From a virus: 64,000 bases of DNA. Under the pieces are notes generated by a model that did no database searches, was not told the DNA's origin, and saw only the letters and a program-made list of their open reading frames with translations. Location: the IMG/VR virus record IMGVR_UViG_3300020404_001578, positions 64,001-128,000 of that record, one strand, 5' to 3'. The first letter of the stretch is position 1, and every line of letters starts with the position of its first letter. Positions 10,104 to 58,660 of the stretch are shown one piece after another. Both the position numbers and the translations under genes were made by a program.

Positions 10104-10156
10104 GTTCACTGCGATACATTGGTTGGTAAAAGTCCTTCCGCTTGTAAACTTGCATT

Positions 10157-10176
10157 TTCTTTATGGCCTACTTGTA
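10157..10176 (+). promoter_or_regulatory. Class I promoter element TTCTTTATGGCCTACTTGTA
   Basis: Ends 14 nt before ATG 10191; near-identical to 4869-4888. Confidence 0.7.
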
Positions 10177-10190
10177 TTCTCGGCTGTTAT

Positions 10191-12821: not shown

Positions 12822-12825
12822 AGTA

Positions 12826-20943: not shown

Positions 20944-21048
20944 GGTCTTCCGACTACCCACTTAGATATAAAAGGTCATACTTTAGTATGCTATAGTATA
21001 CGATACTTACAAGTTATTATTAGCAAGAACCCTATTAACGAGGATGTT

Positions 21049-23058: not shown

Positions 23059-26000
23059 TCACCTCAATTCTGGGCTACCGTATGGTATGAAGGTTGTTCC
23101 TATCCTCTTGAGTTCTTTGTATGTGTTTGGTACACGCTTTGATTTTAGTACAGGCATTGATGCTTCAATGATGTATTCCATTTCTGGTAGTCTTGGGTGT
23201 TGATGGAATCCGTTTGCCTTGATTTCATAGATGTAAGATGGTTCCTTTAGTAATTCAAATGCGCCTTCGTATACTTCGGCTATCATAAACTGACCGTTGA
23301 TATAACCAATTTCTAAGTCGTCATTAGTAGAATCAATTGCCATAGCAAGCGCATACTCATAGTTAGGTGTAGCAAATACTACTTCCCTGCCGACTAAATG
23401 GTTGTAGTTTTGTTGTAATCTGTTGATGTTGGGTACAGATGAACCATGGTACATGACCTTCCTTCCTATTGGGTTTTGCTTTATGGTAAGAATCAATTCA
23501 ATTCCAGAAGCATCCATCCACTCTCTGTACTCCTTAGTATCAGTAATTTGTCCGGATTCAAAGTCAATGCTATCCCACCACTTTACTATGTTCTCAATCT
23601 GAGAAGGCTTCACACTTCCTTTGTGATAGTAAGCAATATTACTGTCGGCTTTCATTCCTTGAGATAGTGGATGATTAATCTTTAACAATGCAATATCTTT
23701 CATTGGTGTTTCCTTTACCTTCTCGTACAAAGCAGGAAGAATCTTTCCTTTCCAATTAGGGAACGGATAAATCAACGGCACAACTCCATCTTGGGCTTTG
23801 ATACCTTCTTTCAGTATACCCTTGACTTCTGTTTGAGGTACGAATGCTAGACCAAATGGTGGTATGGCTAACTCTGGATTTTTCTTTACTGTTGGGCTCA
23901 TTAGTACAGGAACCTTACCGTACTTACGCTTCTCTGTCATTCCTACCCATGGTACATCGGCACACTTAGGCATATTTGCAATGCCGTTCTTTCTTGCCCA
24001 TCGCCAAGGGTCATGTCCCCATACCCATAGTGATAGTAGTTTACGGGATGGTTTATTCTGGGTCTTTTGTTTCTTGACTAGTGGGCCTCTTCTATACTCG
24101 GCGGCTTTATTGTACGGATATGCGGCTGCTCTACCATTGAATCTATTTTGTCGTAGCATCCAACCCCAGTCAGTAGTATCTTCCTTGATTGGTACTGAAC
24201 TGTCAAGTCCTGTCCATTTTTCTAGTGCAAGTTCGTAGTATCTCTTTGTAGTCTGAGGTCCGGGTTTGATGTAGTCTTTTGGTCCAGTAAGTCCTAGTTT
24301 CTTACGCATACGAATAATCCTGCGCAAACTATCTTGTCCGCTAAAGATTCCCTGCTCTCCTGCTTCTTCTGGTGTTAATCCTGCTACGTCAAACCAGTCT
24401 GATTCCATGAAGGCTTTGATTTCTTTATTCTTCATGTTCACTTGGTCTACCCACTGTCTGAACTCTTCTAACGTAGGTTTGTTGCCCTTTCGTGGGTTTG
24501 CCTTGATTAACCCCGCATCAATTGCTAACTGATAGTCTGGCATTTTCTTGTTGCCTTTCTTGACTGTGTTTCCTAATGTGACGAATGAGTAAACTCTTCC
24601 TGCAGCCCATTGGTGTTGTTGAACGCCGGGTCGGTGTCCTCCTCTCCATGCTGCAAGACCTTTATTGTAGACCTTCTGTAAGATTGACTTCTTGATGCCT
24701 GTTGCCTTAGCAATCTTGGTTAAGAATTTGCCTCCTTTAGGAAGTGGCCCGTACATTTGGATGAACTTCCTCTTGTACTTACTAGGTACAGTCTTGTAGC
24801 CTCTTGCTGTTGCTTTAATGTCTGACTTCCAGTATTCGTATGCCTTAGGGTCGTTAATGTCGTACTTGTACCCCTTGTCAATTTCTTTTGCTGCAATAAG
24901 CATCTCTTCTTTGTTTAGACCTTTGAGATATCGCTTAGGTATCTTTCTACCTTCTGGGGTTTTACTTGGATTTCGTTTTAGTTTCAAGCCACCTTTGCTA
25001 ATACTCTTGTATAGTAAGTCCTTGAGTTCATCTGGTGTACCGCCGTTTCTTTCAAACGCCATCAGTAGTACGATTATTGCGTCAGTGATTTCTCCTTCCA
25101 CTCCATCTTTACCGGGTTCTTTGTAAGGCTTGAATCCCTCTTTGATTAAGACTTCTTCAGCGATTTCACCAGACTCTTCCATCAGTTTGATTAATCGGTT
25201 AAACAAGGTGTACTGCCTATCTTCACTTATTTCAAAAACAACCGGAATTAGTTCTTCAAAGGTTAGGGGTGGATTCTTTTTCTCAATTAACTCAGCAATG
25301 TGTTCATTACCTACTACTCTTACCTTACGACCTTTGTATTGGAACTTAACTGAGTCTAGTGCATCTCTTTTTGGACCTGCTCGCAACTTGTTTTTATCTT
25401 TCTCAAGTTTAGCGGCGTTGCTTTTCTTAAGGAAGTCTAAGTCTTTGTCTTTGTTTTCATCCATGTAAATTTGCCAGAAAGGTCCGTAGTAGTGAGCCAG
25501 TGCATCAGCAGTAGACATTACTGCCCCATACATTGTGGTTTGTCCGTTCCAATCTGGGGACTTGATTCTTTCCATATCATCAATGTACTGTACTAACTCA
25601 TCAGCGTAGGCTTTGCCTTTGTGTTTAGAAACTAGATTTCTGACGAGTTCAAAGTTATCCTTATCGCCTAGCATCTTTGGGTAGTCGTGCATCCAAACCA
25701 TGTCATTGAATACTTCCATTTCATCGGTCCCGGCATTTGGTTTAAGCGAGTGAACAATGGCCTTGACATAATCAAGATGATGTTCAATATACCATTCATG
25801 GTGTTTGAATGATGGGTCAGTTGCTGCTCTACGTGCTTCTGTCTCAACAGGGCAATGGTGCGGGTTGTTTGCTGCCAAAAATTCATCAAATGAATATCTT
25901 CTTTCTACCGACCCACTTGCAAGTCCTTGTCCAATATTGAGAGCAATTTGCATAATACGTTCTGGTGTTGGTTGTTTAGTTAATGGTATACGCTTTAGTT

Positions 26001-29000
26001 GATTCAAGAAGTGTATTGGTAATACATCACCATTTTCGTCAAACTCTTTTGATTTATCGCTAGGGTCAAAGTCTGGGTCTTTGATTGGATGTAGCCATGT
26101 GTAGTTAAGTGGTTCAGTTCCATAGCGTTCTTCAATTTGAGGAATCTGTTCATTCCACCAAACCCTGCCATTGAATGTAGGGTCTTCGCCTGTAATTTCT
26201 TTCGTGCGTGCCAAGTATGCTCTATTAATCATGGCTTCAAAATCTGATTGAATGCTGTAAGATGCATTACGCTTTAGCCTAGGTTTGTTTAACATCTTGG
26301 ATAACTTCTCAATCCATACTTGGTCTTTTTCTCTGTTGAGCATTTTGTAGAATGCTAATATTGCAGAAAGGGACTGATATCGTACTCCCTCTTTGACTTC
26401 ATAATCTAACATCTCCGCAGTAAAGTCTGGTCCACCACCTATATCTAATTCAAGTCCATTGACATATCCTTCTGAAATATCTGGCTTGCCGGGGATGATT
26501 GCATCTACATCATTCATTATCGGTTTGAGTCCGTGCATATACAATGCTGCGCCTGCAATCAACATCGCTTTGTTGGCGTCAAGGCCTTGTTGTTCTCCAA
26601 ATATATCTAACGCTTCTCTTATTTCTGTAGCAGTTGGCGTTAGGTTTTCAGATGGATTCCTCTTTGCTTTCTTTAGTTTGATTGCATCGCCAGTAACAAT
26701 AATTACCGCAGGAATTGTTTTGTTGAATTCTACAATAGGAAGACCTAGGCTTCCTCCGGTTTCCACTGTAAAGTTCATTACACCATTACCGCCTCTTCGC
26801 TTTGTTTCTTCTGTTAGTTCATCAATAGCAAATGCAATAGCAAGTGCTGTACGCTTATCTGTTTTCTTTTCGTAGTCTTCTACTAGTCCTAGGAAAATGT
26901 CCTTTACGTTTCCTACTAGTTCTTTTGGAATGTTTCTGTCTACTTCAATCTCAGCCGATACTGCGCCTAAGTTAGTATGCTTCATCGTAGGTACAGTGGT
27001 AAAGAATTGCATACCTTCAATGTTAAATTGGGGATTACGCCTTGCTTTTGTTTTCTTCTTCATTTCTTCAATGAAGTTGGCGTACACTTTCTGGGCGGCC
27101 TTGATTCCCGATGTTGCATTAGGATGGAACCTAGCACGTTGCTCCATTGCCATGGCTGCTTGAATCTTATGTGCATGAGTCTTACCAGAACGCTTGATGA
27201 TGTTTACTGAGCGTTCAGCAGTTTCTTTGTCTTTGAATCCTAACCCTTGAATGGTTCCTCTTGGGTCTTCATCGGTGTATAGGTCTGAATGTTCGCTTGG
27301 GTCTTGCCCCTCATATTTCTTTGGAATACGTGGATTTACTCTGTACCTCGGACCTCTTTCTCTAGGTTTGATTTTTACTGATTTGACTACGGTATCGGGT
27401 TCTCCGTGGCTCTTTGAATTATTATCAAAGTCAGTGATTTCTCCACCTGTTACTAGTTTGGCACTCTCCCAATCTACTTCTGCTCTACCTCTTACCATGA
27501 CGTGTGCCGATGGTTCACGAAAGTTAAATGGCGCACTGTTAAGGTATACTACCCCGTCAATCTCTACCCTTTCAACATATATTGAATCAAACCCTTGTGA
27601 ATCTCTAGAATATTGTATAATCTTTCTGTCGCCCCACTTTGCAATGTTAAAGTAGTGAAGTCCTCCTGCAAAGCGTTCACGTCCTTTTGGTATAGGTGTT
27701 GGGTCCCCAACCACGTAAACATCTTTGTTGGTATCTAGTGTTGCCCCATCAAACGATTTGCCTGTGATATCCTCGTCCGTATCAGCATTGTAGAAATGGC
27801 TTGTACCATCTTCGGTCTTATCCCTGCGGACTACTTTGATTGGAGGGTTCAATTTGGATATGGGAACTGTTTGAGAAATCAAGTCCGCCGACTTTAGCCA
27901 AGGGTATTTGTTCACTGCTTCACCGGGAAAGAAGTTGGAGTTGTTTAGAACCATGGCGGCATTCATATAATCGTCGTCATCAACAGGAATCACAGTATCA
28001 AACTGCGAAGCCTTGCGCTTTTGATGGTATGCAAACTTAGATGCAGCCTTTGCTTGGCGTGGAGTAATACCACTTCTTGATGATAGTTTCATTTCGTGTT
28101 GTTGTGGTGATTGGTTGTTTTGTAGGTAAACAATGTGTAGGTGTGGAAGACTGTCTTTCATTCGTAGTGCCATCGTAGGTGAAGTGTACATTACTGTCTT
28201 TGGTGCCTGTAGTTGTTCCTTAGTATATCCATAACAATGTCCTTTCTCGTCCATAGTCCAATAGGGCATTTGGTCGGCTTTGACTAATTGCATGAATGAT
28301 TCTTTATCGTGGTCTACAGAATCTCGGTTAGGTACACGCCCTACGGGTGAAGGTTGCGTGGTGTGCATCGGACATATCTGGTATCCGTGTCGTCCTAATT
28401 CTTTGGCGACTTCACGGCGACCGCTTCCCATTGGGCCTGCAATTACTATCGTGGATTGGCTCGGTTGTTGGACAACACCACGAACGTCCTTTTTGCAGTG
28501 TTTTGGATTAATCATCGGTTGCACAGGGAAACTTACGTTTGCTGCAGGTAAAACATCTGCTTCGGGTGATTCTGTTGTTTCGTTATCCGACGTCGTGTCC
28601 GACGACGGTTCCAATAACTCGTCACTTTTCACATCGTAAACTTGAGCGAGAACTTGACCCACACGGCTGTAAACTTCTGATGCTGCGCTGACTCCGTAAT
28701 CTTCTCTTGAAGGAATACCTAGAATGTTTAATTTTGCAGGGTATGCAAAACCAAGTGTGGCTGTGGCAATATACCCGTCCTTTAACGGCATTCGTATGTA
28801 TATTCCTTGTCCATATGACATACGGAAATTGCTACCAAACTTACCATCATTCCCGACTATTTTACGTGGGTCGTAATCTTCAAACAACATTTCAGCCGTG
28901 TCTGGGTCAATGGCAATCTCATATGATGCGCCATATTGAACATTGTAGGGCATTTTGGGTGGAGGGTTAGGAATTACATTATGTTGTAAAATATGCTCAA

Positions 29001-30627
29001 TGGTTTCAATGTCCTGCTTGTTTCGTACTGCAATGTAGGCATCGCCATATTGCCCTGCTTGAAGTAGTCCTTCTTGTCTTGCTGTGGCTGCTGCGCTAGT
29101 GAACATATACGGGTGGTGGGCGGTTCTGTCAGCCATGTGAAATATCTTACACAGTAAGTACAGGTCGCCTGCAATTGTTTGGAATTCTTCTTCTGTAATA
29201 CCTCTTCGTCCTACATCTGATTGTAATAGAAGTGAGATGTGGTCTGTCAAATTTTGAGATAGTCCAATTTCTGGTGCTATCTCTTCTCTAAACATCTCAG
29301 CACCGATTACTGAATGGTGTCTGTTATCTTCCTTTTCTCTACGCTTTGCAATGTCATGGTATAGCCCAAGCATCAATAGAACATCTGACCTAGTCCAACC
29401 TGCTTCTATTTCAGTGTCTAAGTATTCTCGTAGTTTAGCCCTGCTTTCCTTGCTTAATCCTTCCCAAGTGTAAAGTCGGTCTTTACCGTCGGCCTTTGGC
29501 AAGAAGTGATACTTGGTCCACCAATAGACGTACATAGTGTGAGCAAACTCATCTCCGCCGTAATGAATCCAATCATAGTCTAAGCCTTTCAACTCACCAA
29601 GGGCGGTTGAGATGTGACGGTCGTCCAACCCTATTCGCTTCGCTACTCCTAAAGGGGTACCACTCCCCGGATTTTTTAATGGGGTTTCTTTCTTGATATG
29701 TGAATGATACTTGATGTTCATAATATGCCCAAAGCGTTCATTCATTTCTGCGACCCATTTTCTAGTAACCTTCTCGCAGAACTTCTCGTCTGATATTGCA
29801 TCGCCCTTGTATTGTTCTTCAAGTTTTGATAGCATCGTATCTAAATCATCAATGAACTTACCTTCGTCCATTCGTAAGTAACTATTTCTTCCTTTATCTC
29901 CTTTGGTAGTTATCTCAAAGTGGTCTAAGCGATTAGCCATAATGGTGTAGTAATGTCTAATTCCCCACTTGTATGCAGCGTCAAGATACCATTGGATATC
30001 ATCGGCACTACTGAAAGATGGTTCATCCTTTGATGGGTGAGTGTGATACATTACCTTTGCATTCTCAACGTGTTTGTTGATTTTAACATAAGGCATGATT
30101 AAGGAACCTTTTCTATGGTAGATTTGTTTTCCCACTACCCATCCATAGGACTCTCCTCTTCTTGTGACAAACGACCATAGTTTGTTGCGGAATGAAGGCG
30201 AATGTAATTCTGTTATTGGATGTATACGGAACCATTTAGTTGGTTTCTTTACTGTCATTTTTCCTAATTCTTCTTCAAATGCTTCCACTGTTGTTGGGTT
30301 CTGGAAAGCAGTATCTCCAAAGAATCTACCATGTACTAGTGTTTGTACTGATGTTGGTGGATTGTTGCGCACATACTCTATCTTGGTTTCCTTTGTTGGA
30401 AACTCTACACTATGCTCTATACCGTCTACTTCAAACACTGCAACCTTTCCTAAGAACGGTTTTAGTGCCTGTAGTGCATATTGTTTCTGGATTTCATCAG
30501 AAAATAATACCGACCATGTCCCTTTGTTAGCATCAAAGTTAGATGATACTACATCAAACGACCCGTATACCTCTCCCGCCTTAGGAAAGCCAAAGACCAT
30601 TTCAATCGTCTTCTGACTCGGTTCCAT
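23059..30627 (-). CDS. Giant multidomain polyprotein (about 2520 aa) with NP-delimited enzyme modules
   Basis: Start MEPSQK at 30627 after GAGGAGGA. JAB (YHTHP...SSADD), two HD, guanylate-kinase-like, YbjQ-like, NTase-like, MazG-like, DUF5824-like, DUF3140-like and ART-like (YHGS...FATP) modules. Confidence 0.8.
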   Translation of the reverse strand: MEPSQKTIEMVFGFPKAGEVYGSFDVVSSNFDANKGTWSVLFSDEIQKQYALQALKPFLGKVAVFEVDGIEHSVEFPTKETKIEYVRNNPPTSVQTLVHGRFFGDTAFQNPTTVEAFEEELGKMTVKKPTKWFRIHPITELHSPSFRNKLWSFVTRRGESYGWVVGKQIYHRKGSLIMPYVKINKHVENAKVMYHTHPSKDEPSFSSADDIQWYLDAAYKWGIRHYYTIMANRLDHFEITTKGDKGRNSYLRMDEGKFIDDLDTMLSKLEEQYKGDAISDEKFCEKVTRKWVAEMNERFGHIMNIKYHSHIKKETPLKNPGSGTPLGVAKRIGLDDRHISTALGELKGLDYDWIHYGGDEFAHTMYVYWWTKYHFLPKADGKDRLYTWEGLSKESRAKLREYLDTEIEAGWTRSDVLLMLGLYHDIAKRREKEDNRHHSVIGAEMFREEIAPEIGLSQNLTDHISLLLQSDVGRRGITEEEFQTIAGDLYLLCKIFHMADRTAHHPYMFTSAAATARQEGLLQAGQYGDAYIAVRNKQDIETIEHILQHNVIPNPPPKMPYNVQYGASYEIAIDPDTAEMLFEDYDPRKIVGNDGKFGSNFRMSYGQGIYIRMPLKDGYIATATLGFAYPAKLNILGIPSREDYGVSAASEVYSRVGQVLAQVYDVKSDELLEPSSDTTSDNETTESPEADVLPAANVSFPVQPMINPKHCKKDVRGVVQQPSQSTIVIAGPMGSGRREVAKELGRHGYQICPMHTTQPSPVGRVPNRDSVDHDKESFMQLVKADQMPYWTMDEKGHCYGYTKEQLQAPKTVMYTSPTMALRMKDSLPHLHIVYLQNNQSPQQHEMKLSSRSGITPRQAKAASKFAYHQKRKASQFDTVIPVDDDDYMNAAMVLNNSNFFPGEAVNKYPWLKSADLISQTVPISKLNPPIKVVRRDKTEDGTSHFYNADTDEDITGKSFDGATLDTNKDVYVVGDPTPIPKGRERFAGGLHYFNIAKWGDRKIIQYSRDSQGFDSIYVERVEIDGVVYLNSAPFNFREPSAHVMVRGRAEVDWESAKLVTGGEITDFDNNSKSHGEPDTVVKSVKIKPRERGPRYRVNPRIPKKYEGQDPSEHSDLYTDEDPRGTIQGLGFKDKETAERSVNIIKRSGKTHAHKIQAAMAMEQRARFHPNATSGIKAAQKVYANFIEEMKKKTKARRNPQFNIEGMQFFTTVPTMKHTNLGAVSAEIEVDRNIPKELVGNVKDIFLGLVEDYEKKTDKRTALAIAFAIDELTEETKRRGGNGVMNFTVETGGSLGLPIVEFNKTIPAVIIVTGDAIKLKKAKRNPSENLTPTATEIREALDIFGEQQGLDANKAMLIAGAALYMHGLKPIMNDVDAIIPGKPDISEGYVNGLELDIGGGPDFTAEMLDYEVKEGVRYQSLSAILAFYKMLNREKDQVWIEKLSKMLNKPRLKRNASYSIQSDFEAMINRAYLARTKEITGEDPTFNGRVWWNEQIPQIEERYGTEPLNYTWLHPIKDPDFDPSDKSKEFDENGDVLPIHFLNQLKRIPLTKQPTPERIMQIALNIGQGLASGSVERRYSFDEFLAANNPHHCPVETEARRAATDPSFKHHEWYIEHHLDYVKAIVHSLKPNAGTDEMEVFNDMVWMHDYPKMLGDKDNFELVRNLVSKHKGKAYADELVQYIDDMERIKSPDWNGQTTMYGAVMSTADALAHYYGPFWQIYMDENKDKDLDFLKKSNAAKLEKDKNKLRAGPKRDALDSVKFQYKGRKVRVVGNEHIAELIEKKNPPLTFEELIPVVFEISEDRQYTLFNRLIKLMEESGEIAEEVLIKEGFKPYKEPGKDGVEGEITDAIIVLLMAFERNGGTPDELKDLLYKSISKGGLKLKRNPSKTPEGRKIPKRYLKGLNKEEMLIAAKEIDKGYKYDINDPKAYEYWKSDIKATARGYKTVPSKYKRKFIQMYGPLPKGGKFLTKIAKATGIKKSILQKVYNKGLAAWRGGHRPGVQQHQWAAGRVYSFVTLGNTVKKGNKKMPDYQLAIDAGLIKANPRKGNKPTLEEFRQWVDQVNMKNKEIKAFMESDWFDVAGLTPEEAGEQGIFSGQDSLRRIIRMRKKLGLTGPKDYIKPGPQTTKRYYELALEKWTGLDSSVPIKEDTTDWGWMLRQNRFNGRAAAYPYNKAAEYRRGPLVKKQKTQNKPSRKLLSLWVWGHDPWRWARKNGIANMPKCADVPWVGMTEKRKYGKVPVLMSPTVKKNPELAIPPFGLAFVPQTEVKGILKEGIKAQDGVVPLIYPFPNWKGKILPALYEKVKETPMKDIALLKINHPLSQGMKADSNIAYYHKGSVKPSQIENIVKWWDSIDFESGQITDTKEYREWMDASGIELILTIKQNPIGRKVMYHGSSVPNINRLQQNYNHLVGREVVFATPNYEYALAMAIDSTNDDLEIGYINGQFMIAEVYEGAFELLKEPSYIYEIKANGFHQHPRLPEMEYIIEASMPVLKSKRVPNTYKELKRIGTTFIPYGSPELR

Positions 30628-35083: not shown

Positions 35084-35085
35084 AA

Positions 35086-38531: not shown

Positions 38532-38540
38532 CTATTCACC

Positions 38541-38927
38541 TCAAAAGAAATTGGTTAGTGCGTCTACACCTCTACCTGCCTTCGCACTAGCCTGCGCAGG
38601 TAATGTTTTCAATCCTTTCGCAGCATTAACTACTACTTCAGGAATAAGACCTCTACCGGGGAATACTGCATCTTGCTTAACTAATACATCATATTCTTCT
38701 AGTGTATCAACCAGTCCTCTAAGTAAAGTAAAAACCAACAACACATCGGAAGCAGTATTGACTTTGTTCCATGTTCTGTTTTTCATACCGAACTGCTTGT
38801 ACTTTCTTGTTCTTTTACTTAGGGTCATTAGTTTGGCCGAGTTGATTGCAAGAATGAAACTCAATGATAGTGCATCAATAGTCTTCCAACCCTGTGCGGA
38901 TATGCCAAATAGTGTGTGATTTGCCAT
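38541..38927 (-). CDS. Small membrane-associated protein
   Basis: Start MANHT; hydrophobic segments. Confidence 0.65.
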   Translation of the reverse strand: MANHTLFGISAQGWKTIDALSLSFILAINSAKLMTLSKRTRKYKQFGMKNRTWNKVNTASDVLLVFTLLRGLVDTLEEYDVLVKQDAVFPGRGLIPEVVVNAAKGLKTLPAQASAKAGRGVDALTNFF

Positions 38928-41900: not shown

Positions 41901-42745
41901 TCTATGTTGGTGTTTATTTGTCCTTCATTAACATCAGTGATAAGCATTGATTCTACAGTTCCGCCCATCCTCAAATCTCCTAACGGGGGTGGAGGCCATG
42001 GTCCCTTTGCTTTTTTGTACATCCAATGAACAAAGTTTGGGTTTGAATCAAAATTGTACCAACCTCCTATTCCTGCTGTTGCATGAGAATAGCAAGTTCC
42101 CCATGGATTTTGGTCTGTTATTGATTTGAATCTATTTTTGATGTTTCTTAACCGAAGCCATCCATCGTCGGTCAAGTCAAATCTTTCTCCTACCTCCATC
42201 TTGACAGGGGGTAAGTCATACACATAAGCAGGTTCTGAATCTACCCCTCCTGCTAGTACTGTTTTGTGGTTGTATACTTCTGGTGGTGTATCTCTTAGTA
42301 CTATACTTGATAGGTCTGATGTTAGTACCTCTGGGTCTTCGCCCAATGGTATATCAGGCATTTCTATACTTGGTTTTGGTAATTCTTTATTCTTCTGAGG
42401 GTCTATTGCAGGCACTGCAATATTACGTTCTGGTAGCGTGATATCTGGTAATGCAGGTACTCCTGCACTAAGGAATTTCGCATCTTGGATTTTCTTTGGT
42501 CTAATCTCTTTCATTATTGATTGATGATTCTCGGCGTTGGCTCGCTCTTGATGGTTAGCATAATCTGGCTGTGCTTGCCAGTTATACTTGTGCCAATACT
42601 TAGTGTGTCTATTGTTTTTGACTCCCCATGGTGTTTGACTGGGGTTTCCTGCCAAACCACATCTTGCACAAGGTCCTATTGTTTCGTTATCGTGAGAACA
42701 GTAAGGACATACATACACTGACACCACCTCATACGTACAAGTCAT
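38927..42745 (-). CDS. NP-delimited polyprotein: Zn finger, papain-like (C1) protease, HAD phosphatase, Nudix hydrolase, YbjQ-like, C-terminal unknown
   Basis: CPYC/CARC; DQNPWGTCYS, NHAVSIVG, IRNSYGEGYGDGGY; DIDDTL...ITGRP...FFDN; PGGKLEEGETPKQTAMIETKEEAG; GRNIGAD...ELGGNAI. Confidence 0.85.
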   Translation of the reverse strand: MTCTYEVVSVYVCPYCSHDNETIGPCARCGLAGNPSQTPWGVKNNRHTKYWHKYNWQAQPDYANHQERANAENHQSIMKEIRPKKIQDAKFLSAGVPALPDITLPERNIAVPAIDPQKNKELPKPSIEMPDIPLGEDPEVLTSDLSSIVLRDTPPEVYNHKTVLAGGVDSEPAYVYDLPPVKMEVGERFDLTDDGWLRLRNIKNRFKSITDQNPWGTCYSHATAGIGGWYNFDSNPNFVHWMYKKAKGPWPPPPLGDLRMGGTVESMLITDVNEGQINTNIEAFNEAETDNCDDAKLLALRKQAKQVSVGSETNRSNVWTRGSYAQRIGEGAAGSTSEIWQIVSSSIYQGIPLYLSTGWPQSLRRPSSNYMIASGPTGGGNHAVSIVGVQVTEAIKAPGILENPRLRMDPLKHTKKTGKYSRYGSHKGGGSFMYQELNKALGLSIAAIKKFIQVDHKTNEIKVNLGNKNFTNEEIDTILEIIARNYPSKNIEVRIGKGKQKTIVSEPEDPKPKVLDEPTTQKQGGKPDDPPKQQQLLTLNTKGKHEKPRYYLDAPLIDDLNQCWVLIRNSYGEGYGDGGYLWVDFISFVSYWNYIGSHIEITANNSSGKGHKKKQAQNQPQNQQKQGKGKGKGKGKGKGKGKRKGKGKGKPKNNPSPQMLNTTTPVQMRPRATHDYQPTGYAYTKPELLIALDIDDTLVDTSQRMRSAKRMGLFDPKQVGKKQHPKGREAFREYFYSSDRFSLDKPIIGAVDFAHAMLKEGYKIAYITGRPDTTLELTKSQLRNLGFPLTNDKYGATLVYCKPETARETAAWKKNILSSLQSTYDVRFFFDNNAKNLEVGRQLGIPGLYLAIDQYTGITALADRFKKVPAHLDNPSHVDVSSYRRAAGCIVQRATDKKVLLLRRSPKETSMHGLYELPGGKLEEGETPKQTAMIETKEEAGMDVKIVKELTPVHVDHDMKKCYHCFLARPKKGAKVVLSEEHDHYIWVTPEEALTMSEPLSHHAEHFFRLMTGMKVNPHDPDEDEEAYRDMFDDSPYANPAGVIPIMTGEPTGKHTKLGTVFSEVFIGRNIGADVGEVVQAIYRGIIGGRTSMAEKRMAMAVATMQKELSDKAVELGGNAISNLNLDYEIPKGTASVTLIAHGDAIKTSTVRNNPGGGKATKLYREFNGKAPDKVEKTSIKIPTTLVRVGEGGCWSVGYRSDKEGHGEKQKYIHEFGDFGRFPKKKPKKGHRKEPDLYAALDEKGNVIDLRIIGGTFSLDVDPDTGINWLVG
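40790..40870 (-). repeat. Coding (GK)n linker
   Basis: KQGKGKGKGKGKGKGKGKRKGKGKGKPKNNP. Confidence 0.85.
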
Positions 42746-43913
42746 CTAATGGGTCAGGATTTTGTTTTCCATAAGTGATACAAGGATTCTGACCGCAACC
42801 ACAATTCATAGCAGGGTTCTCTAAGGGTCTTCCACTACCGCCTTTTTCTCTTTCAGTTTTGAGTCCTAACTCTTTTGTTAGTAACTCATCTGGTGATAAT
42901 GGTACAATGTTGCCATAGAAGTCCTGCTTGTGAGTATCTGGGTTAAATGGTATGTCCATTGCTTCTGTTTGCACTTTTGTCCAAGGCTTACCACTTGCTT
43001 CAGCCTTCTCTATTTGTTGTTCTATAGAAACAATCATTCTGTCGCCACCTTCAAGGCTTGCTTTAAGAGCGACACTGTTTAGGAATTTACCGACTGACTC
43101 ACTAGGCTTACGTGCAACCTTTGATGAGCCTTGCATTCCGGGTACCCCTTGCAGTGATTGCATTACTCTGTTGTATGAATGGAAAAAATCAACTGCGGAC
43201 TTAATTGCACTAGTAGGTACTAAATTTTGGTCTGCTTTTAGCCCTAAGAAGAATGGCTTACCTTTGCCTATGTCTTTTGCTGCGGTCATTAGAGATATTG
43301 CTATATCGCCTAATTCACCCATGATTTCATGGCATAGATTACTTGTTGATGAGATTGTTCCTATCAATCTGAAATGGTCGGTATCTTCCTCATGGCCTTC
43401 CATTGTCTTTCTTACTTCAAAGTCATCTAGTAGTAATTTAGTGTCAGCGAGAATATCTGCTGCACTACGGGCCCTTTGTCCAAGTGCGTTATACTGTGCT
43501 TTGAGTTGCTTACGGCTCTTACGAGTATTCGTGCTTGTTGCTACTGGCCATCCCTGTGCAATGGCAATTAGGGTGTCTTTTGTTGTCTTTATGATTTTAT
43601 CAGCAAGACGCTCTAGTTGTCTTATCTCCAATGAAAGCAAAGCATTGGGCCTGTCTTTGATGAAAGCATCTATTTCTCCTCCATATTTTTGACTGACCAT
43701 TTCATCTATAGAACCTAGCACTACCTCTCTTTGTTGCATTGCTTCTGTTGCTGCAGCATCAATAACTGCTTGAACTACTGCGGAGTTAGATACTGTTGAA
43801 GTAACAGATACTCCTTTTTTATCTAACTCGGTCTTTCTTTTTTCTAGTAGTTTCCTGAGTTCTTTTTTACTACCGTGGTCCATTTGTTTTAGAAGTTCAT
43901 GTAGATTACTCAT
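42729..43913 (-). CDS. Helical hypothetical protein with NP-rich Cys tail
   Basis: 394 aa ending in LENPAMNCGCGQNPCITYGKQNPDP. Confidence 0.75.
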   Translation of the reverse strand: MSNLHELLKQMDHGSKKELRKLLEKRKTELDKKGVSVTSTVSNSAVVQAVIDAAATEAMQQREVVLGSIDEMVSQKYGGEIDAFIKDRPNALLSLEIRQLERLADKIIKTTKDTLIAIAQGWPVATSTNTRKSRKQLKAQYNALGQRARSAADILADTKLLLDDFEVRKTMEGHEEDTDHFRLIGTISSTSNLCHEIMGELGDIAISLMTAAKDIGKGKPFFLGLKADQNLVPTSAIKSAVDFFHSYNRVMQSLQGVPGMQGSSKVARKPSESVGKFLNSVALKASLEGGDRMIVSIEQQIEKAEASGKPWTKVQTEAMDIPFNPDTHKQDFYGNIVPLSPDELLTKELGLKTEREKGGSGRPLENPAMNCGCGQNPCITYGKQNPDPLDDLYV

Positions 43914-43914
43914 T

Positions 43915-46647
43915 CTATAACCTCCTTAACATTTCATCTATCAATAGTGCTTCTTGAACTTCGTCAAGATTTGCGTTATCAAACGCATTACCTACGACAT
44001 CAGCCACATTACGTTCTCTACGGTCAGCAAGGTTATTCATTACTCCACGAAGTAGGTCTGTAATGCCTCTACGTTCTTCGCTAGTTTGTCTTCTTGCTCC
44101 TAAGCAATTATCAAGACACCAAACTAGTACGTGATAAATAAATGCTGTATCATCGGCACTTGCTACGTAGTTGTACTTAGTACGTGATTGCTTTAGAATT
44201 TCTCTTAGAATAAACATACTGGATAATCCATTGCTTGTATCTACATTTAGATTAACCATACCTTGTCCACTTTGCATAGCATACTGGAAGAAGTCGTCCC
44301 AGTGCATCTGAATTATTAACTGACAGAACTCCATACGATTTCTAGCGTTTACAATGTTATCTCCGCCTGCATCAAAGAGATGTTTACTTGCTCCTGCAGC
44401 AGTGATATATCCCATGGTTTCTAGCACACGGTTGTTTAGTAGTTGATTGTAAAGTGTGTTGTATCTTGCAAACCCTGTAGTCAATTTGCCTTTTGGTTGT
44501 GAATTGATTATTCCTAACATTTCACTTAGGTCATCAAAGTTTCTTCTTTGTGTTGCATCCAGTTGCATCATACTATCTGACAATGTCATAAGAGAATATG
44601 CAGTTCTTGCTACGACTGATAATTTATCATGGTAGTATTTTAGATTATCTTCCTCTGTAGAATACCGTAGTGCATCCCTAATCATTCTATATGATAGTCC
44701 ATACCTACGCTGACGTTGTTCATCTTCATCATACCATGATACTTCTACTTCAGCGTCTGGGTCAAATCTAAAGTCGCTATTGATTGAAGGCGAAAGGAAG
44801 TCTTCTCTACTAAATGTAGTGCCGTTAAGTCCTGCGATTTGTTCACGATACTTTGCAAGTACTTCCATCATTGAGTAGACCAACTCTTCTGGCCAACCCA
44901 CAGGGTTGGGGTGAAGTCCCGGTAAATCAATCTCAAACAGAATAGGTGTATTTGCCATTACGACTGTATGGTAGTTTACCTCATACAAATTCGGGTTGTT
45001 GGCTTGATAGTCTAGTATTGCTTGAACGGTTTCTGCTTTAGTTCCGTATCCACCTTCTACCCCAGTCATATTCATTGCAAGGTCAATCAATTCGTCTTTT
45101 TTCATCCTGTTTAGTTCGGCACGGGTGTAATTACCAATGTATGGCATTGAAACCATTTCACCGGTTTGTCTGGTTCCCCTCCAAGGTGTTCGGTTCCTAC
45201 GCAATGCTTTGTTTAAGTTATTTTGACTGAGCGTGTCTTCTGCATTACGTGTCCGATTGTATAGTCTTCTAGCGGCTTCAACATAGTCCTGAACTCGGTG
45301 AGCAGTGATTTCTACTTCGTCTTGTTCAAGTGGTGCGAATAGTGCTTCTAGAATACCCGGGACGTCTAAGTTTTGTATTCTTTCTTGTAAGAACGCCCAA
45401 CTAAATGCTGCTGTACCGGGTCCTACTGCTGCAGTATGATGTAATGGTACTAATGCAGGTCCTCCACTACCTTCTCTTTCTGAATATCTAACAATAATGC
45501 GTTGTCCTGTATTTGCATACCTTGGTGGTTCGCCTCCTTCATTGAGTACTCTTTCGGCTCTTGTGACGTGAGTACGACGATTACGGGCTCCTTCTAATTC
45601 AATATGCGGTGGAGGAAGTAGTACGAATTGCATATGCGGTATCAAAAATATTGGGTGTACCATTAGGGACATATCCTTGCCGTGGTAGAAGTCCGCAGCA
45701 TCAGTTGCAAGACGTTGCATCATGTATTTCATTTGAGAACTATAGCGTCGTCTGTTTCCTGCACGGGCACTTCTAGAGTTTCCTCCCACTGGAGTTGAAT
45801 CCAAACCTACGTTTCGTCCCTCTTCACCTAGTCTTGTGAGGCTTGGAAGAATTTCTGCGTTCATATGACGGATGAAATTATCTACGGTGGCCGAATGCAC
45901 TAAGTAGGGTTCAAGTACGTAATTACAGAATCTGTAAAGTACATCGGTATTTACTTGATACTTGCTTGACATACGATGGTTATCATAAAATTGGTCTACA
46001 TCGGACATATGGTATGAAACCATTGGCTGACCATCGGGTGATGTACTAACCTCAGTATATGGGTCAATACGATATCCTTCTTCACTAAAGTATTCTTTCA
46101 ACCTGCGGTCAATCTCAGCATTGAAGATATCTTCTTGGCCTGCAAGAATCTGAGCAGGTCTAGCAACTATTGGGCGTGGATTACTACGTACATACTCGCT
46201 ACCGGGGGTGATACTATCAACATCAACAATTCTTGCTCGCATGATTCCTTGATGTGGTAGGCTTGGTGAGCGAACCTTCATGTTAAGTCCTGAAATGATA
46301 TTACATGTTCCTTGGAAGGCTCCATGTTGCTCAAACATATCATGTACTAATGATGCGGACAGATGCTTTGGTGAAAGTAAAGGAAAATAGTTTCCTCTTG
46401 GGTCTGGTCGCTCATTTTTGAATTTAGCGAAAGCGTATGGTTGTGGTGGGTTAGATAGCATTGCTGACCCCGGTTCAATTAGGAAATCTCCTCCACTTTG
46501 TACGGTTTTCAAATCAACCATTCTACCATTTGTTGTTTGAATGGTAAAGTTGGTATCAACATAACCTGCTTCTCTAAGTGTTTTCTTGGCCAAGTCGTAT
46601 GCTTCCAAGAAGGAAGACAAGGGCGTGGAAACTGTTAGAGGAATCAT
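43915..46647 (-). CDS. Large protein with NP motifs and a Rho-N/HeH-like nucleic-acid-binding motif
   Basis: LSNP and RSNP motifs; AELNRMKKDELIDLA...TKAETVQAIL at about 45004-45130. Confidence 0.7.
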   Translation of the reverse strand: MIPLTVSTPLSSFLEAYDLAKKTLREAGYVDTNFTIQTTNGRMVDLKTVQSGGDFLIEPGSAMLSNPPQPYAFAKFKNERPDPRGNYFPLLSPKHLSASLVHDMFEQHGAFQGTCNIISGLNMKVRSPSLPHQGIMRARIVDVDSITPGSEYVRSNPRPIVARPAQILAGQEDIFNAEIDRRLKEYFSEEGYRIDPYTEVSTSPDGQPMVSYHMSDVDQFYDNHRMSSKYQVNTDVLYRFCNYVLEPYLVHSATVDNFIRHMNAEILPSLTRLGEEGRNVGLDSTPVGGNSRSARAGNRRRYSSQMKYMMQRLATDAADFYHGKDMSLMVHPIFLIPHMQFVLLPPPHIELEGARNRRTHVTRAERVLNEGGEPPRYANTGQRIIVRYSEREGSGGPALVPLHHTAAVGPGTAAFSWAFLQERIQNLDVPGILEALFAPLEQDEVEITAHRVQDYVEAARRLYNRTRNAEDTLSQNNLNKALRRNRTPWRGTRQTGEMVSMPYIGNYTRAELNRMKKDELIDLAMNMTGVEGGYGTKAETVQAILDYQANNPNLYEVNYHTVVMANTPILFEIDLPGLHPNPVGWPEELVYSMMEVLAKYREQIAGLNGTTFSREDFLSPSINSDFRFDPDAEVEVSWYDEDEQRQRRYGLSYRMIRDALRYSTEEDNLKYYHDKLSVVARTAYSLMTLSDSMMQLDATQRRNFDDLSEMLGIINSQPKGKLTTGFARYNTLYNQLLNNRVLETMGYITAAGASKHLFDAGGDNIVNARNRMEFCQLIIQMHWDDFFQYAMQSGQGMVNLNVDTSNGLSSMFILREILKQSRTKYNYVASADDTAFIYHVLVWCLDNCLGARRQTSEERRGITDLLRGVMNNLADRRERNVADVVGNAFDNANLDEVQEALLIDEMLRRL

Positions 46648-46658
46648 CTTTTATCACC

Positions 46659-47081
46659 TCATAGTCCATACTTTGGGTCTAGGATTAGAATTTGTCTGCC
46701 TGCTTCATCTGTAGTGTACACATAGTCTTTAGGAGGTGTCAAACGATGTGTATGGCGAGAAGTAGCGTAATCACGAATTCTATTTGGTTGTGTATTCACA
46801 TTGTACTTGACGTGTTGGTTTAGTCCGCCCATGTTGCTACCCTCTTTGTTGCTCATTACATTGTAGTAGGCTAAAGGTAGGCCAAAAAGAAGTCCCACTG
46901 CTGCACCACGGATTATTACATCAGTGTTACTTCGGGTACTCTTGAAGCCGAGTGTATAGTTGAATACGTGCTTGTCAAGAAGCGTTCCTAATCCTGCGAC
47001 TCCTGCTAATGCTCCACCAATTGTTGCAGTTTTCAGGATGTCGTTTGGTGTCGTGCTTTTTATTGTATCAATGAAGGTCAT
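46659..47081 (-). CDS. Small membrane protein (2 TM)
   Basis: Two hydrophobic Gly-rich helices; SNMGG motif. Confidence 0.7.
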   Translation of the reverse strand: MTFIDTIKSTTPNDILKTATIGGALAGVAGLGTLLDKHVFNYTLGFKSTRSNTDVIIRGAAVGLLFGLPLAYYNVMSNKEGSNMGGLNQHVKYNVNTQPNRIRDYATSRHTHRLTPPKDYVYTTDEAGRQILILDPKYGL

Positions 47082-49219
47082 GCTTTCTTACCCCTTTTCT
47101 TTGCTATTTTTCTTTGGTGAGCATCATACATTGAGCCTTTGAAAGCATTAGGTATGATGAACCTTGTTGGTAGACTCTTTGTACTCTTGAATACGGGCAT
47201 CCCGTATACATCACCAAACTTAGCGAAGGCTTTCTTGAGTTCAGCACTACCCTTCATCAATGATATGGTTCTGTAGTTTTTGCCGTCTACGTTTGTATTG
47301 GCTGCTTGGAAGTGTGAAGTTGGTAATCGCATAAGCCATGGAACTTCTTCTCCGGAATCCTTGTGGGTCGCAGTATGTACGAATACGCCTCCGTAAGATT
47401 GCTTAGGTGGAACTAGTTTTGTTAGCCCTAGTTTGGTTTCGCCTTTGGTCTTACCAAGTTTGCGTTCTTCATCGGTGAGGTTCTTCTTTCTGGGAAACGT
47501 AAGTTTTGTCTTAGGGAATAGTTGAACATAAAGGAATTTTCCTCTTCCAAGTGGGACTTCTCCCCCATATCCCGGATTGTTCCGTGATTCTCTTGCTTTT
47601 CCTCTAACAAAATCATTTCCACTGGCAGGAATTCTGTCACGTGGTCTGCGATTGCGGTTTCCTCCGGCGCCGTCACGATTGCCGCCGTCACGATTGCCGC
47701 CGCCACCGCCGCCTTGACCCGGTCTGCCTCCGCTTCGGTTGTTACCTTGTTGGCGGTTTCCTCGGTCTTGACGACGCTCGTCTAATAGGCGTTGTTCTCC
47801 TTGGCGTTGTCTTTGGGTGTAGGAGTCATCTCCTAGACCGCCGGTTAAGTTCTTGAATTCATCTTCGGTAATCTTAACGAGTTTGTCTTTTGCTTTCATC
47901 CAACGGCCAATAGGCTTGGAGTTAGTTAGTGAAACAACTTCAGTGTAAACACCTTCTGCTAGATTCTTCATGTTAAGGGTGTTATCTTTCTTCAATGCTG
48001 CAGCAAGGCTTGGGTGGTACATCATAATGTGTTGCTTGGCAGGGTCATTCTTCCCACCTTTGAAGATAACAATCAATGGTTGGTGTCCAACATAGTTATC
48101 GTTTGTTGGGTCAAACATACCGACATAGCCTGTTTCTGGTTTGAAGTTGTAAGGTGGCTTCATTAGAATGTCAAGGTTGGTTCTCATAGTGAGAATGTCC
48201 CCTGCATCGTATGCAGCCACGGTTTGGAGCATCAATTCGTATGCACCGATAGGGTCGTGATTTTCATTGGTGGTTCTAAACGCATAGTTGCGACCATGTG
48301 CTTGAGTCATGGTTTTGATTTCCTTGACTACCGATGCTTCTTCGGGCAGTGGTGGTCGGTATCTACTGGTCAAAGATTGGTAGATTGCCCAACCTTCATC
48401 ACGGTGGACCAATGGTAATTCGTAGTAGTTGTATCGCTTGATACGCATACTTGCGATGATATCTCTGGCAAGTTTGAACATTCTGTTGAAGTTTGTTGTT
48501 GCCGTGTCAAGGTTCTGGTGAATGGTGAACCCATCTGTCATTAGGTTGTATACTAGGGAGCCTTTCTGTAATAGGTCCGCTTCGTTTCCTCCATGAACCA
48601 TACGGCGCATTAATTCCATGTGGTCACGGTCTTTCTCCCAATTGAATAAGAAATGGTGGATGATTGCCCTATCTTCTTCTGAAACTGATGCGTTTAATTC
48701 TGCACCTACGTCGGTCATGGTCATGTTGTCAATGTATTCTTTCCATGTACCTGCAGGAACTAGAGTAATCAGGTGTGAGTCACGGAAATCTGCTGCTCGG
48801 ATTCCTGCTCTTTCAAGACCACGGATGAATGGTCTTAGGATACCTCCGCCTCTTTCGCTACCTCTTACAAGACGCAATGCTCTCCATGGGATACCAAGTA
48901 GCGATTGCGCTAGTGATTCTTGTCTTGTTACTGGGTTAGATAGCAAGTAGTCCTCATTGGGGTCTTGCGTACCCATAATCATTTCATCGTCTGTAGTCGT
49001 TCCTAACATATCTTCATCATCCTCTATGTCTCTTTCTTCAATACTGAATGCTAATTCTCCGGGCGGTACTGGATTACTCCTTACCATCTTTGTCAGTCTT
49101 CGCCCATTATGGTTTGCAGTTAGTATTGTTGCTCCTGATGATGGGTTGGACATTACGGTATAATTATCGGTGCTTATTGCACCTCCTTCTGGCAAATTGA
49201 AAGTTTGAACTTGCCTCAC
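47078..49219 (-). CDS. Large protein with SNP motifs and RG-rich linker
   Basis: VMSNP, VRSNP, LLSNP and SRNNP motifs; GNRDG repeats. Confidence 0.7.
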   Translation of the reverse strand: MRQVQTFNLPEGGAISTDNYTVMSNPSSGATILTANHNGRRLTKMVRSNPVPPGELAFSIEERDIEDDEDMLGTTTDDEMIMGTQDPNEDYLLSNPVTRQESLAQSLLGIPWRALRLVRGSERGGGILRPFIRGLERAGIRAADFRDSHLITLVPAGTWKEYIDNMTMTDVGAELNASVSEEDRAIIHHFLFNWEKDRDHMELMRRMVHGGNEADLLQKGSLVYNLMTDGFTIHQNLDTATTNFNRMFKLARDIIASMRIKRYNYYELPLVHRDEGWAIYQSLTSRYRPPLPEEASVVKEIKTMTQAHGRNYAFRTTNENHDPIGAYELMLQTVAAYDAGDILTMRTNLDILMKPPYNFKPETGYVGMFDPTNDNYVGHQPLIVIFKGGKNDPAKQHIMMYHPSLAAALKKDNTLNMKNLAEGVYTEVVSLTNSKPIGRWMKAKDKLVKITEDEFKNLTGGLGDDSYTQRQRQGEQRLLDERRQDRGNRQQGNNRSGGRPGQGGGGGGNRDGGNRDGAGGNRNRRPRDRIPASGNDFVRGKARESRNNPGYGGEVPLGRGKFLYVQLFPKTKLTFPRKKNLTDEERKLGKTKGETKLGLTKLVPPKQSYGGVFVHTATHKDSGEEVPWLMRLPTSHFQAANTNVDGKNYRTISLMKGSAELKKAFAKFGDVYGMPVFKSTKSLPTRFIIPNAFKGSMYDAHQRKIAKKRGKKA

Positions 49220-58623: not shown

Positions 58624-58660
58624 GTTATGGCCCAATCTATTCTTCGTATTAACACCTACG

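Follow-up and report, generated by a model that had tools for sequence, protein, structure and literature searches.

What does the dipeptide Asn-Pro do in giant proteins of an uncultured virus, where it stands at the places at which unrelated modules meet? The question was raised by positions 23,059 to 49,219 of a stretch of 64,000 nucleotides (positions 64,001 to 128,000 of the IMG/VR virus record IMGVR_UViG_3300020404_001578); the whole stretch is called the window in the following, and all coordinates refer to it. A reading made from the letters alone (the sequence-only reading) had taken Asn-Pro (NP) for punctuation between the modules of several polyproteins, and further for a cleavage and/or packaging signal by which the virus loads many enzymes into the virion and releases them singly. 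Comparison with relatives bears out the punctuation. As to its function, we hold with moderate confidence that processing takes place at the seams: they would lie exposed in linkers, be recognised over the positions P4 to P1' and be cut at or next to Asn-Pro.

Nearly all genes of the window are on the minus strand, among them the polyproteins A, B and D (coordinates of all features in Table 1). Residues 1-942 of A form a colinear core composed of a leader, a JAB module, an HD module, a module of unknown kind and a guanylate kinase, and residues 943-2537 are variable cargo cassettes. B is made up of an AEP-like N-terminal part, an ATP-dependent ligase, a JAB module and a tail, and is colinear in all relatives. 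D begins with a zinc ribbon and a spacer, followed by a C1 papain-like peptidase with an insertion, a GK-repeat, HAD, Nudix and YbjQ modules and a tail.

The motif is present in A, B, D, E, F, G and a protamine-like protein, and the sites named by the sequence-only reading are all there: exactly 15 NP dipeptides in A, each noted coordinate lying inside its AAY-CCN hexamer, N900, N1178 and N1380 in B, N654, N874, N1017, N1039 and N1154 in D, the xxSNP sites of F and G and the LVNP of the protamine-like protein. That they usually follow basic residues agrees with R or K at P3 in 10 of the 15 sites of A. The length of 2520 amino acids (aa) given for A differs from that of the open reading frame (ORF), which has 2537 aa from its first ATG, and fits a conserved start at M16 (30627, giving ~2520 aa), which is probably the true one. 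Module homology begins at the variant KRNA, which had likewise been drawn as a border; by the homology of relatives both KRNA and a second site in A overlooked before, N911-S912, are degenerate seams. Also passed over were D N34 and D N403, and some NPs that are not seams, namely B N266 in the AEP motif 'DIDNP' and two in D, N213 and N235, that adjoin the catalytic Cys of the papain-like peptidase.

The number of NPs exceeds what composition predicts. In A the 15 NPs compare with 6.6 expected (3 of 2000 shuffles reach 15), and in the seven NP-bearing ORFs of the block 41 compare with 19.1 (none of 2000 shuffles reaches 41). The extended motif [PAIVTLM][RKLFM]xNP occurs 22 times in the block where 2.1 are expected (at most 9 among 2000 shuffles) and 4 times, with 3.2 expected, in the other 42 ORFs of the window, the roughly 10-fold enrichment being confined to the block. 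None of 28 NPs falls within a Pfam envelope (DUF5824, YbjQ, HD, guanylate kinase, JAB, ligase C-terminal domain, HAD and Nudix were counted), the envelopes making up 18% of the length (P = 0.004), and complete envelopes stop 6-33 residues from the nearest NP.

By database search we retrieved 169 A-type and 43 D-type polyproteins, which measure 700-4200 aa and are highly diverse in their Pfam domains. The statistics on NP, breakpoints, cassettes and architectures were computed over 165 related polyproteins. NP is over-represented 3.3-fold in them (1881 versus 575) and is the top dipeptide among those without Cys or Trp. In an all-against-all BLAST, 42-45% of about 30,000 internal ends of high-scoring segment pairs (HSPs) lay no more than 3 residues from an NP, compared with 5% of random positions; the median distance was 4 aa, compared with 39. 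When the proteins were cut at NP, 76.6% of the homologous segment pairs reached a reciprocal coverage of at least 80%, which an equal number of random cuts allowed in 2.3%, cuts at PS in 17% and cuts at DP in 11%. The segments fall into 333 module families, and the 165 proteins have 153 architectures. The guanylate kinase has 37 different right-hand neighbours, DUF5824 has 24 on the right and 36 on the left, and YbjQ, Nudix and family 28 modules are found in both A-type and D-type proteins. Among the further modules of the relatives are ITPase, NDK, glutaredoxin, GNAT, SET, PAP2 and others.

Single cases can be followed in the A homologues on four IMG/VR loci, which with 1545-1900 aa are shorter than A itself. 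NP-bounded segments align end to end (1-100/100, 1-126/126, 1-158/158, 1-235/235), with differing order and number. One left-hand tail meets different right-hand modules, and vice versa, always at the Asn-Pro bond (N↓P): the tail '...KTKARR-N' is followed by YbjQ in the window and by DUF5824 in the relative L005, and DUF5824 follows three different tails. The left module retains its tail (hydrophobic-basic-x-N) and the right module its head (P...). Comparison thus demonstrates that the modules are discrete units exchanged, inserted, deleted and reordered exactly at this bond, in line with the view of the sequence-only reading that NP delimits modules; its term 'plug-in cargo system' is a fair label for the combinatorics.

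The seam residues are themselves under selection. In an alignment of the A core with 60 relatives (61 sequences, identity down to 24%) only about 50 columns are invariant, and the seam residues and the JAB catalytic residues are among them: N125, P126, N569, P570, N722, P723 and N942 are invariant, and P105 (97%), N334, P335 and P943 are conserved to at least 90%; N104 reaches 79%. At colinear joints N and P are conserved to 97-100%. The flanks of the seams are 10-40% identical and rich in indels, and P4 to P1' are free of them. All eight AAY-CCN codon pairs are in use, orthologous seams have different codons and the flanking nucleotides are not conserved; this synonymous variation places the constraint on the protein. 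Among 1702 homologues of DUF5824, NP flanks the close ones and is missing around the distant ones (identity of 48% or less, in proteins of other context), and where DUF5824 is the last module the chain stops two residues before the would-be Asn; the seam thus does not belong to the domain as such. As far as alignments can establish it, selection acts on the two residues and not on the DNA or on the individual domains.

The motif extends to the left of the dipeptide. With one consensus per module family (326 families), P4 is P, A, I, V, T or L in 65% and P3 is R, K, L or F in 60% (R 73, K 56, L 41, F 25), P2 is free, P2' is variable (P in 63 or 19%, S in 46 or 14%, G in 18) and so is P3'. The extended motif therefore reads [P/A/I/V/T/L]-[R/K/L/F]-x-N-P; NPs inside catalytic motifs do not have the P4/P3 pattern.

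An AlphaFold2 (AF2) model of A 1-950 (61 sequences, mean pLDDT 74) consists of confident domains split by coil of pLDDT<50 at 122-126, 330-347, 569-575, 685-739 and 916-950, with an NP seam in each. Five of the six NPs of the A core and all five junction NPs of D (654-1154) lie in such coil between confident domains; in the model of D 150-1272 the peptidase is poorly modelled, and the seams are in the linkers between HAD, Nudix, YbjQ and tail. The placement of the sites outside folded domains therefore stood for 10 of 11 joints and failed for N104, which is predicted in the loop between two strands of the leader. The linkers are short, hydropathy being back at domain level within about 5 residues. 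A Foldseek search with the 950-aa model found the guanylate kinase domain only and confirmed the identity of this module.

The leader of A contains a conserved peptide of 21 aa with NP at both ends (aa 105-125, 30295-30363, minus strand), beside which relatives have an additional NP-bounded peptide of 18 aa. In the model the 21-aa peptide forms two strands that complete the leader beta domain, so a cut at N104 would leave pieces that are held together, as at sites of the FlhB/RsgI type.

We propose that [P/A/I/V/T/L]-[R/K/L/F]-x-Asn-Pro would be a processing signal at every joint of the cassette polyproteins A, B and D, and that other late-block proteins would bear the same signal, either in a leader or propeptide at the N-terminus (the protamine-like protein, F and G) or at the C-terminus (E). 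A trans-acting viral endopeptidase would read P4 to P1' in the linker and cut at or beside Asn-Pro, which would free single enzymes and trim leaders. The polyprotein format may serve to deliver or package a varying set of enzymes together, which only the gene neighbourhood suggests. Loading into the virion would likewise be read from the neighbourhood alone, which contains a HerA/FtsK-type ATPase and the motif-bearing protamine-like protein.

In the protamine-like protein the motif ends a 16-aa leader, 'MALAE..(M/V)(L/M)VN↓PPRKK', that is conserved in all relatives. The three sites within the first 95 aa of G and the two of F flank spacers that cannot otherwise be aligned between relatives, and the Cys-rich mini-module with which E closes is, in some relatives, part of D-type polyproteins. 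By analogy, this pattern of leaders and spacers is the one that a maturation protease leaves in the precursors of adenovirus, African swine fever virus (ASFV) and T4. Sequence searches of the PDB with F and G gave nothing usable. The protamine-like protein (19882-20961, minus strand, 359 aa) consists of about 170 residues of RRRKTT/RRRKSPA repeats and a Gly/Ala-rich hydrophobic C-terminal half, and ends with 'GGSR.MNFY', conserved in all relatives; some gene callers start it at an internal 'MARRR'. Its possible role is to condense DNA while anchored in a membrane or shell. The ORFs E and D share 17 nucleotides (42729-42745).

Which enzyme could cut? Among the protease-like domains, the two JAB/MPN+ modules in A (126-334) and B (901-1178) alone are constant. 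Both have the JAB motif E...HxHx(n)SxxD, whose catalytic residues in A are invariant; the motif is found in 116 of 120 relatives of A and in every homologue of B, including the distant relative L010. Enzymes of the JAMM family bind the hydrophobic-Arg-Gly-Gly tail of ubiquitin-like proteins (L-R-G-G in ubiquitin). Since this family reads a hydrophobic-Arg-x-x tail, which resembles hydrophobic-R-x-N, one of the two modules could be the enzyme; to this weaker part of the proposal we extend about a third to a half of the confidence we have in cutting. The JAB module of A matches Pfam Prok-JAB with E = 0.002 and 18.3 bits, under the cut-off of 25 bits, and a PDB sequence search with the JAB module gave no match.

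The C1 papain-like module of D was the other candidate. Its motifs QNPWGTC, NHAV and NSYG come in this order, His and Asn being separated by an insertion of about 170 aa. The module of the window has no match to PF00112; that of the relative L007 scores 28.5 bits (cut-off 20.7) over 22 residues only, and the relatives P0132, P0134 and P0148 have precomputed PF00112 assignments. PDB searches with the C1 region returned only low-complexity matches to the GK-repeat. Near relatives replace the module by an unrelated one, which makes it less likely to be the enzyme, and as swappable cargo of the D family it was rejected as the universal NP protease. The substitute of 374 aa (10571-11692, plus strand, in L009; also in the D homologue of L001) has no Pfam match and contains '...VLFFHGDN...SSSGES...'. 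In D itself aa 625-653 (about 40787-40870, minus strand), directly before the PKNNP seam and between peptidase and HAD, are a run of GKGKGKGKGKGKGKRKGKGKGKPK. The GK-repeat, a low-complexity basic spacer, gave spurious PDB matches to the tails of ribosomal protein S10.

Pfam scans of A, B and D or their single modules gave no match to a zincin or MPTase, and those of about 45 window ORFs none to a clan-CE (Ulp1/adenain-like) protease, most of these ORFs being without any match. A weak transglutaminase-like (papain-fold) match at 57934-58686 (minus strand, E = 0.007) marks another possible protease candidate.

Several points weigh against a cut at the seams. The support for it is wholly comparative. 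Neither a start codon nor a gene border replaces an NP among 554 small ORFs of the window and the related loci; a separate tail ORF in the relative L002 still has its own upstream NP, and the sole split gene, that for A in L004, breaks within module 4 and not at an NP (the split, two ORFs at 9983-11815 and 11862-15707 with about 15 codons gone, may reflect a genuine disruption or else a fault of assembly or sequencing). The C1 peptidase is present in 11 of the 43 D-family proteins and absent from 32, and L009 and L001, about 90% identical to L007 elsewhere, have the 374-aa module in its slot with intact seams. The cleavage known from JAB enzymes follows Gly-Gly; a cut with Asn on its left or Pro on its right would be unprecedented in the JAMM family, and Pro at P1' is disfavoured by most endopeptidases. 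The JAB modules could equally be anti-host effectors or deconjugases. The depletion of NP inside modules is weak (36 versus 63 expected; 8 versus 13.4 on non-redundant rows), and NPs are tolerated in folded domains, as in the AEP motif of B and in the JAB metal-binding motif 'HTHPANP' of L001 and L003. Nor is the neighbouring 957-aa protein C consistently free of NP: an avoidance suggested by the lack of NP in the proteins of the window and of L005 was discarded because that of L004 has four.

The comparative nature of the support and the short linkers would also fit a seam that is never cut. It might serve as structural punctuation that insulates neighbouring modules during folding (a rigid kink, an Asx-Pro turn or a helix cap), or as a repeated docking motif that a packaging or chaperone factor reads. 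In proteins at large NP often forms turns and N-caps, and a thermosome, possibly such a chaperone factor, is encoded nearby. Hinges normally drift, however, and here two residues stay invariant over 24-96% identity, with a P4/P3 preference over 326 unrelated families. Modules in last position drop the N tail and distant DUF5824 homologues are without NP, so the seam is no domain cap. Short N-terminal leaders, too, end in the motif, and what a hinge would do there is hard to see. We consider an uncut seam rather unlikely, though it is the alternative to be taken most seriously.

The invariance of both N and P would be explained better by self-cleavage than by ordinary protease specificity. The Asn side chain would attack its own carbonyl to give a succinimide, Pro at the +1 position would block deamidation, and no protease would be required; the reaction might be slow or occur in the particle. 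Members of MEROPS family N6 (FlhB/YscU, Asn↓Pro-Thr-His) cleave exactly this bond, and self-cleavage at Asn is known from several viral coat proteins (PMC3207474). RsgI is a further Asn-Pro case (PMC10328401). A N104, where the chain loops from one strand of a folded beta domain to another, has a geometry like that of known self-cleaving sites. The other 10 of the 11 modelled seams are in flexible linkers between unrelated domains, with no common strained turn or catalytic partner, and nothing is conserved after NP (P2' variable over the 326 families). The likeness to FlhB/YscU drawn by the sequence-only reading fails in the essentials: a conserved Thr-His does not follow NP, the sites are in flexible linkers and not in a folded turn, and neither homology nor an FlhB-type Pfam match was found. 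The P4/P3 preference, moreover, suggests an external reader, and internal NPs in folded domains are retained. In peptides, Asn-Pro bonds break without catalysis only over weeks or more. Self-cleavage appears quite unlikely to us.

A translational skip of the 2A type ('StopGo') at NP on the host ribosome is very improbable. The 2A consensus ends N-P-G↓P and some seams read NPG (LKNPGSG, RNNPGGG), and an archaeal host, if it is one, has a release factor of the eukaryotic type; G is at P2' in only 18 of 326 families, an upstream D-x-E is lacking and the P4/P3 pattern is different, and we know of nothing comparable in prokaryotes. That the seam is a DNA-level recombination site (AAYCCN) or a product of composition or chance can practically be dismissed, for although modules recombine exactly at the seam, all eight codon pairs are used, flanking nucleotides are free, shuffles never reach the counts, and PS, DP and random cuts fail.

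Returning to a protease that reads the linker, a wider claim can be put forward tentatively, with our judgement leaning against it: hydrophobic-[R/K/L]-x-Asn↓Pro would be a new proteolytic code across several unrelated lineages of uncultured prokaryotic viruses, cut by a JAB/MPN+ enzyme of new specificity or by assisted Asn-lyase chemistry. It would give a universal plug-in format in which whatever enzyme cassette comes to stand between two seams would automatically be expressed, delivered and set free as a protein of its own.

The sequence-only reading had not recognised the system as described. Within the reach of the text searches this holds for the fixed NP junction code, and it does not for multi-enzyme polyvalent proteins with predicted self-processing, which have been published and are the closest published concept (Iyer, Burroughs, Anand, de Souza and Aravind, 2017; PMC5512222). 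Polyvalent proteins have 2 to more than 15 unrelated enzymatic domains per chain, are encoded near structural genes and contain embedded peptidases predicted to release the units (PMC5512222). The proteins of the window and their relatives share with them the many unrelated enzymatic domains per chain (JAB, HD, guanylate kinase, YbjQ, DUF5824, ligase, C1, HAD, Nudix) and the rapid combinatorial variation (153 architectures in 165 proteins, up to 37 neighbours per module). They differ in having a fixed junction motif, of which PMC5512222 makes no mention, and in that the zincin-like MPTase, the hallmark there, was not found here. In place of anti-restriction cargo they have mostly nucleotide house-cleaning and metabolic enzymes (guanylate kinase, HD, Nudix, HAD, ITPase, NDK, glutaredoxin, GNAT, SET, ligase), and the host is probably archaeal. 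Polyvalent proteins also enter the host packaged with the DNA in the virion, for which the packaging-type ATPase and the core-like basic protein near the polyproteins would here be the hints. Literature text searches returned no description of an NP-type junction code in proteins of phages or archaeal viruses.

The Asn↓Pro dipeptide is shared with families N6 (FlhB/YscU/EscU) and N7 (reovirus mu1) and with RsgI, and viral particle proteins often self-cleave at Asn (PMC3207474, PMC10328401). There the bond belongs to one dedicated folded domain with fixed neighbours, whereas here it is found in the linkers that join hundreds of unrelated modules, and P2' and P3' vary.

Maturation codes offer a second comparison. 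Adenain cuts pVII, pX and pVI at (M/I/L)XGG↓X, pS273R of ASFV cuts pp220 and pp62 at GG↓X and poxvirus I7 cuts at AG↓X. As in these systems, a short motif with a hydrophobic P4 is found in several core precursors, including a protamine-like protein with a short leader as well as polyproteins; unlike them, P1 and P1' are Asn and Pro rather than Gly and X, the precursors are enzyme cassettes and not shell proteins, and cleavage is predicted from sequence. A bond N-terminal to Pro is cut in the HIV-1 MA/CA site SQNY↓PIVQ by an aspartic protease with an aromatic P1 and a fixed order of products; host endopeptidases rarely cut before Pro, so that the specificity is private. The predicted cut before Pro in a polyprotein resembles these retroviral X↓Pro sites, which belong to RNA or reverse-transcribing viruses, and differs in the combinatorial order of the modules. 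The prohead protease gp21 of phage T4 removes capsid-targeting leaders at L/I-x-E↓ within the particle, and phiKZ gp175 cuts at S/A/G-x-E↓. Common to these internal proteins and ours is a leader that ends at a short motif on the cargo; there P1 is Glu and single proteins have one leader, here there are strings of cassettes, and the scans of the window revealed no homologue of a prohead protease.

Seams that are cut would imply either a protease specificity not seen before or Asn-Pro chemistry put to a new purpose, and would for the first time supply polyvalent cargo proteins with an explicit grammar. They would account for the way in which abundant marine viruses, with genomes of about 135-143 kb as judged by contigs reaching about 143 kb, shuffle dozens of host-manipulating enzymes and keep their expression intact, would make the boundaries of mature proteins predictable in thousands of giant metagenomic ORFs, and would provide a compact orthogonal cleavage tag for biotechnology as well as a handle on a virus group without recognisable capsid genes, whose thermosome points to archaeal hosts. 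Even if they are uncut, a two-residue seam that is invariant over hundreds of unrelated modules is an unexplained constraint.

Table 1. Features of the window discussed in the text (L and P numbers denote relatives; pLDDT values and model residues refer to AF2 models).
Feature	Position	Strand	Remarks
ORF A	23059-30672	-	2537 aa from first ATG
ORF B	30602-35083	-	1493 aa
ORF C	35086-37959		957 aa
ORF D	38927-42745	-	1272 aa
ORF E	42729-43913
ORF F	43915-46647
ORF G	47078-49219
A N104-P105 (VRNNP)	30358..30363	-	within leader beta domain, loop between strands 97-102 and 109-116 (AF2)
A N125-P126, leader/JAB seam	30295..30300	-	invariant in 61 sequences; pLDDT<50 segment 122-126
A JAB/MPN+ module, aa 126-334	29671..30297	-	E174, H210, H212, S222, D225
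A N334-P335, JAB/HD seam	29668..29673	-	at least 90% conserved; pLDDT<50 segment 330-347
A N569-P570, HD/module 4 seam	28963..28968	-	invariant; pLDDT<50 segment 569-575
A N722-P723, module 4/guanylate kinase seam	28504..28509	-	invariant; pLDDT<50 segment 685-739
A N911-S912, degenerate seam, guanylate kinase/30-aa mini-module	27937..27942	-	I-N-P in relatives
A N942-P943, core end/start of variable cargo	27844..27849	-	N942 invariant; guanylate kinase family with 37 right-hand neighbours
A N1113-P1114 seam	27331..27336	-	segment 1114-1213 aligns 1-100/100 to L005 segment in other context
A N1213-P1214 seam (ARRNP), before YbjQ	27031..27036	-	same left tail 'KTKARRN' then DUF5824 in L005
A N1339-P1340 seam (AKRNP), after YbjQ	26653..26658	-	segment 1214-1339 aligns 1-126/126 with L004
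A N1469-A1470 variant seam (KRNA)	26263..26268	-	L004 module homology begins here
A N1603-P1604 seam	25861..25866	-	HSP starts and ends cluster at 1603/1604
A N1800-P1801 seam	25270..25275	-	HSP ends cluster at 1801
A N1901-P1902 seam (LKRNP), before DUF5824	24967..24972	-	Pfam, homology breakpoints
A N2059-P2060 seam (IKANP), after DUF5824	24493..24498	-	Pfam, homology breakpoints
A N2265-P2266 seam (VKKNP)	23875..23880	-	38 HSP ends at 2266
A N2400-P2401 seam (IKQNP), before conserved C-terminal module	23470..23475	-	homology breakpoints
B N266-P267 in 'CIDIDNP'	34283..34288	-	conserved internal NP, no seam, without P4/P3 consensus
B N900-P901 seam (ARPNP), ligase/JAB	32381..32386	-	AKPNP in L001/L003/L004
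B N1178-P1179 seam, JAB/next module	31547..31552	-	conserved in relatives
B N1380-P1381 seam, before acidic tail	30941..30946	-	conserved in relatives
D N34-P35, after N-terminal zinc ribbon	42641..42646	-	'C..C...NPG.P.NPWG' conserved in D family
D C1 papain-like peptidase module, aa 190-654	40784..42178	-	Q212..C218, NHAV ~386, NSYG ~570
D N403-P404 (ILENP), start of peptidase insertion	41534..41539	-	AF2 model poor here
D N654-P655 seam (PKNNP), peptidase/GK-repeat to HAD	40781..40786	-	pLDDT<50 linker, model residues 445-522
D N874-P875 seam, HAD/Nudix	40121..40126	-	pLDDT<50 linker, model residues 712-731; Pfam envelopes end 848, start 883
D N1017-P1018 seam, Nudix/acidic 22-aa spacer	39692..39697	-	pLDDT<50 linker, model residues 867-892
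D N1039-P1040 seam, spacer/YbjQ	39626..39631	-	Pfam; low-confidence linker
D N1154-P1155 seam (VRNNP), YbjQ/tail module	39281..39286	-	invariant in 40 sequences; pLDDT<50, model residues 1000-1008
E C-terminus, ~20-aa Cys-rich mini-module (N366, N376, N385)	42756..42818	-	NP-bounded
F N66-P67 (MLSNP)	46447..46452	-	conserved in L007/L009
F N156-P157 (VRSNP)	46177..46182	-	conserved in L007/L009
G N25-P26 (VMSNP)	49142..49147	-	conserved in L007/L009
G N49-P50 (VRSNP)	49070..49075	-	conserved in L007/L009
G N95-P96 (LLSNP), ends acidic spacer, before conserved G body	48932..48937	-	L007/L009; roughly in distant L010
Protamine-like protein N16-P17 (MLVNP), ends 16-aa leader	20911..20916	-	leader 'MALAE..VNPPRK' in L003/L004/L005, P0302, P0305
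HerA/FtsK-type P-loop ATPase, 261 aa	21781..22566	-	AAA_22, DUF87, TraG P-loop matches

What kind of virus is it? The relatives were found on contigs from marine metagenomes, the longest about 143 kb, with Tara and coastal samples as their sources. The window has no DNA match in the GenBank phage collection, and protein matches there are at the level of Nudix only; a scan of the viral contig collection with G gave no match. Pfam and PHROG scans gave no match for most of the other ORFs of the window. The capsid candidates 16363-17361 and 17525-18439 had only weak 'viral hypothetical' neighbours in ESM-Atlas feature searches, and capsid genes are not recognisable by sequence in this virus group. 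The HerA/FtsK-type protein is a candidate genome-packaging ATPase and as such gives context to the reading of the late genes as a virion block.

The best clue in the window to the host, which is probably an archaeon, is a group II chaperonin (3317-4855, minus strand; Pfam Cpn60_TCP1, E = 1e-120), the nearest solved relatives of which are the archaeal thermosomes of Thermoplasma and Methanococcus, followed by eukaryotic CCT. The relative L006 (PAND01000026.1), a contig of 100 kb, was binned in a metagenome-assembled genome (MAG) called 'Flavobacteriales bacterium', and P0085 is labelled as an 'Euryarchaeota archaeon' MAG; since the two conflict, binning is no reliable guide to the host, and at least one of them is a viral contig mis-binned with cellular DNA. 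Farther along the window, at 56320-57216 (minus strand), a protein with collagen repeats is encoded (PF01391, 27.6 bits).

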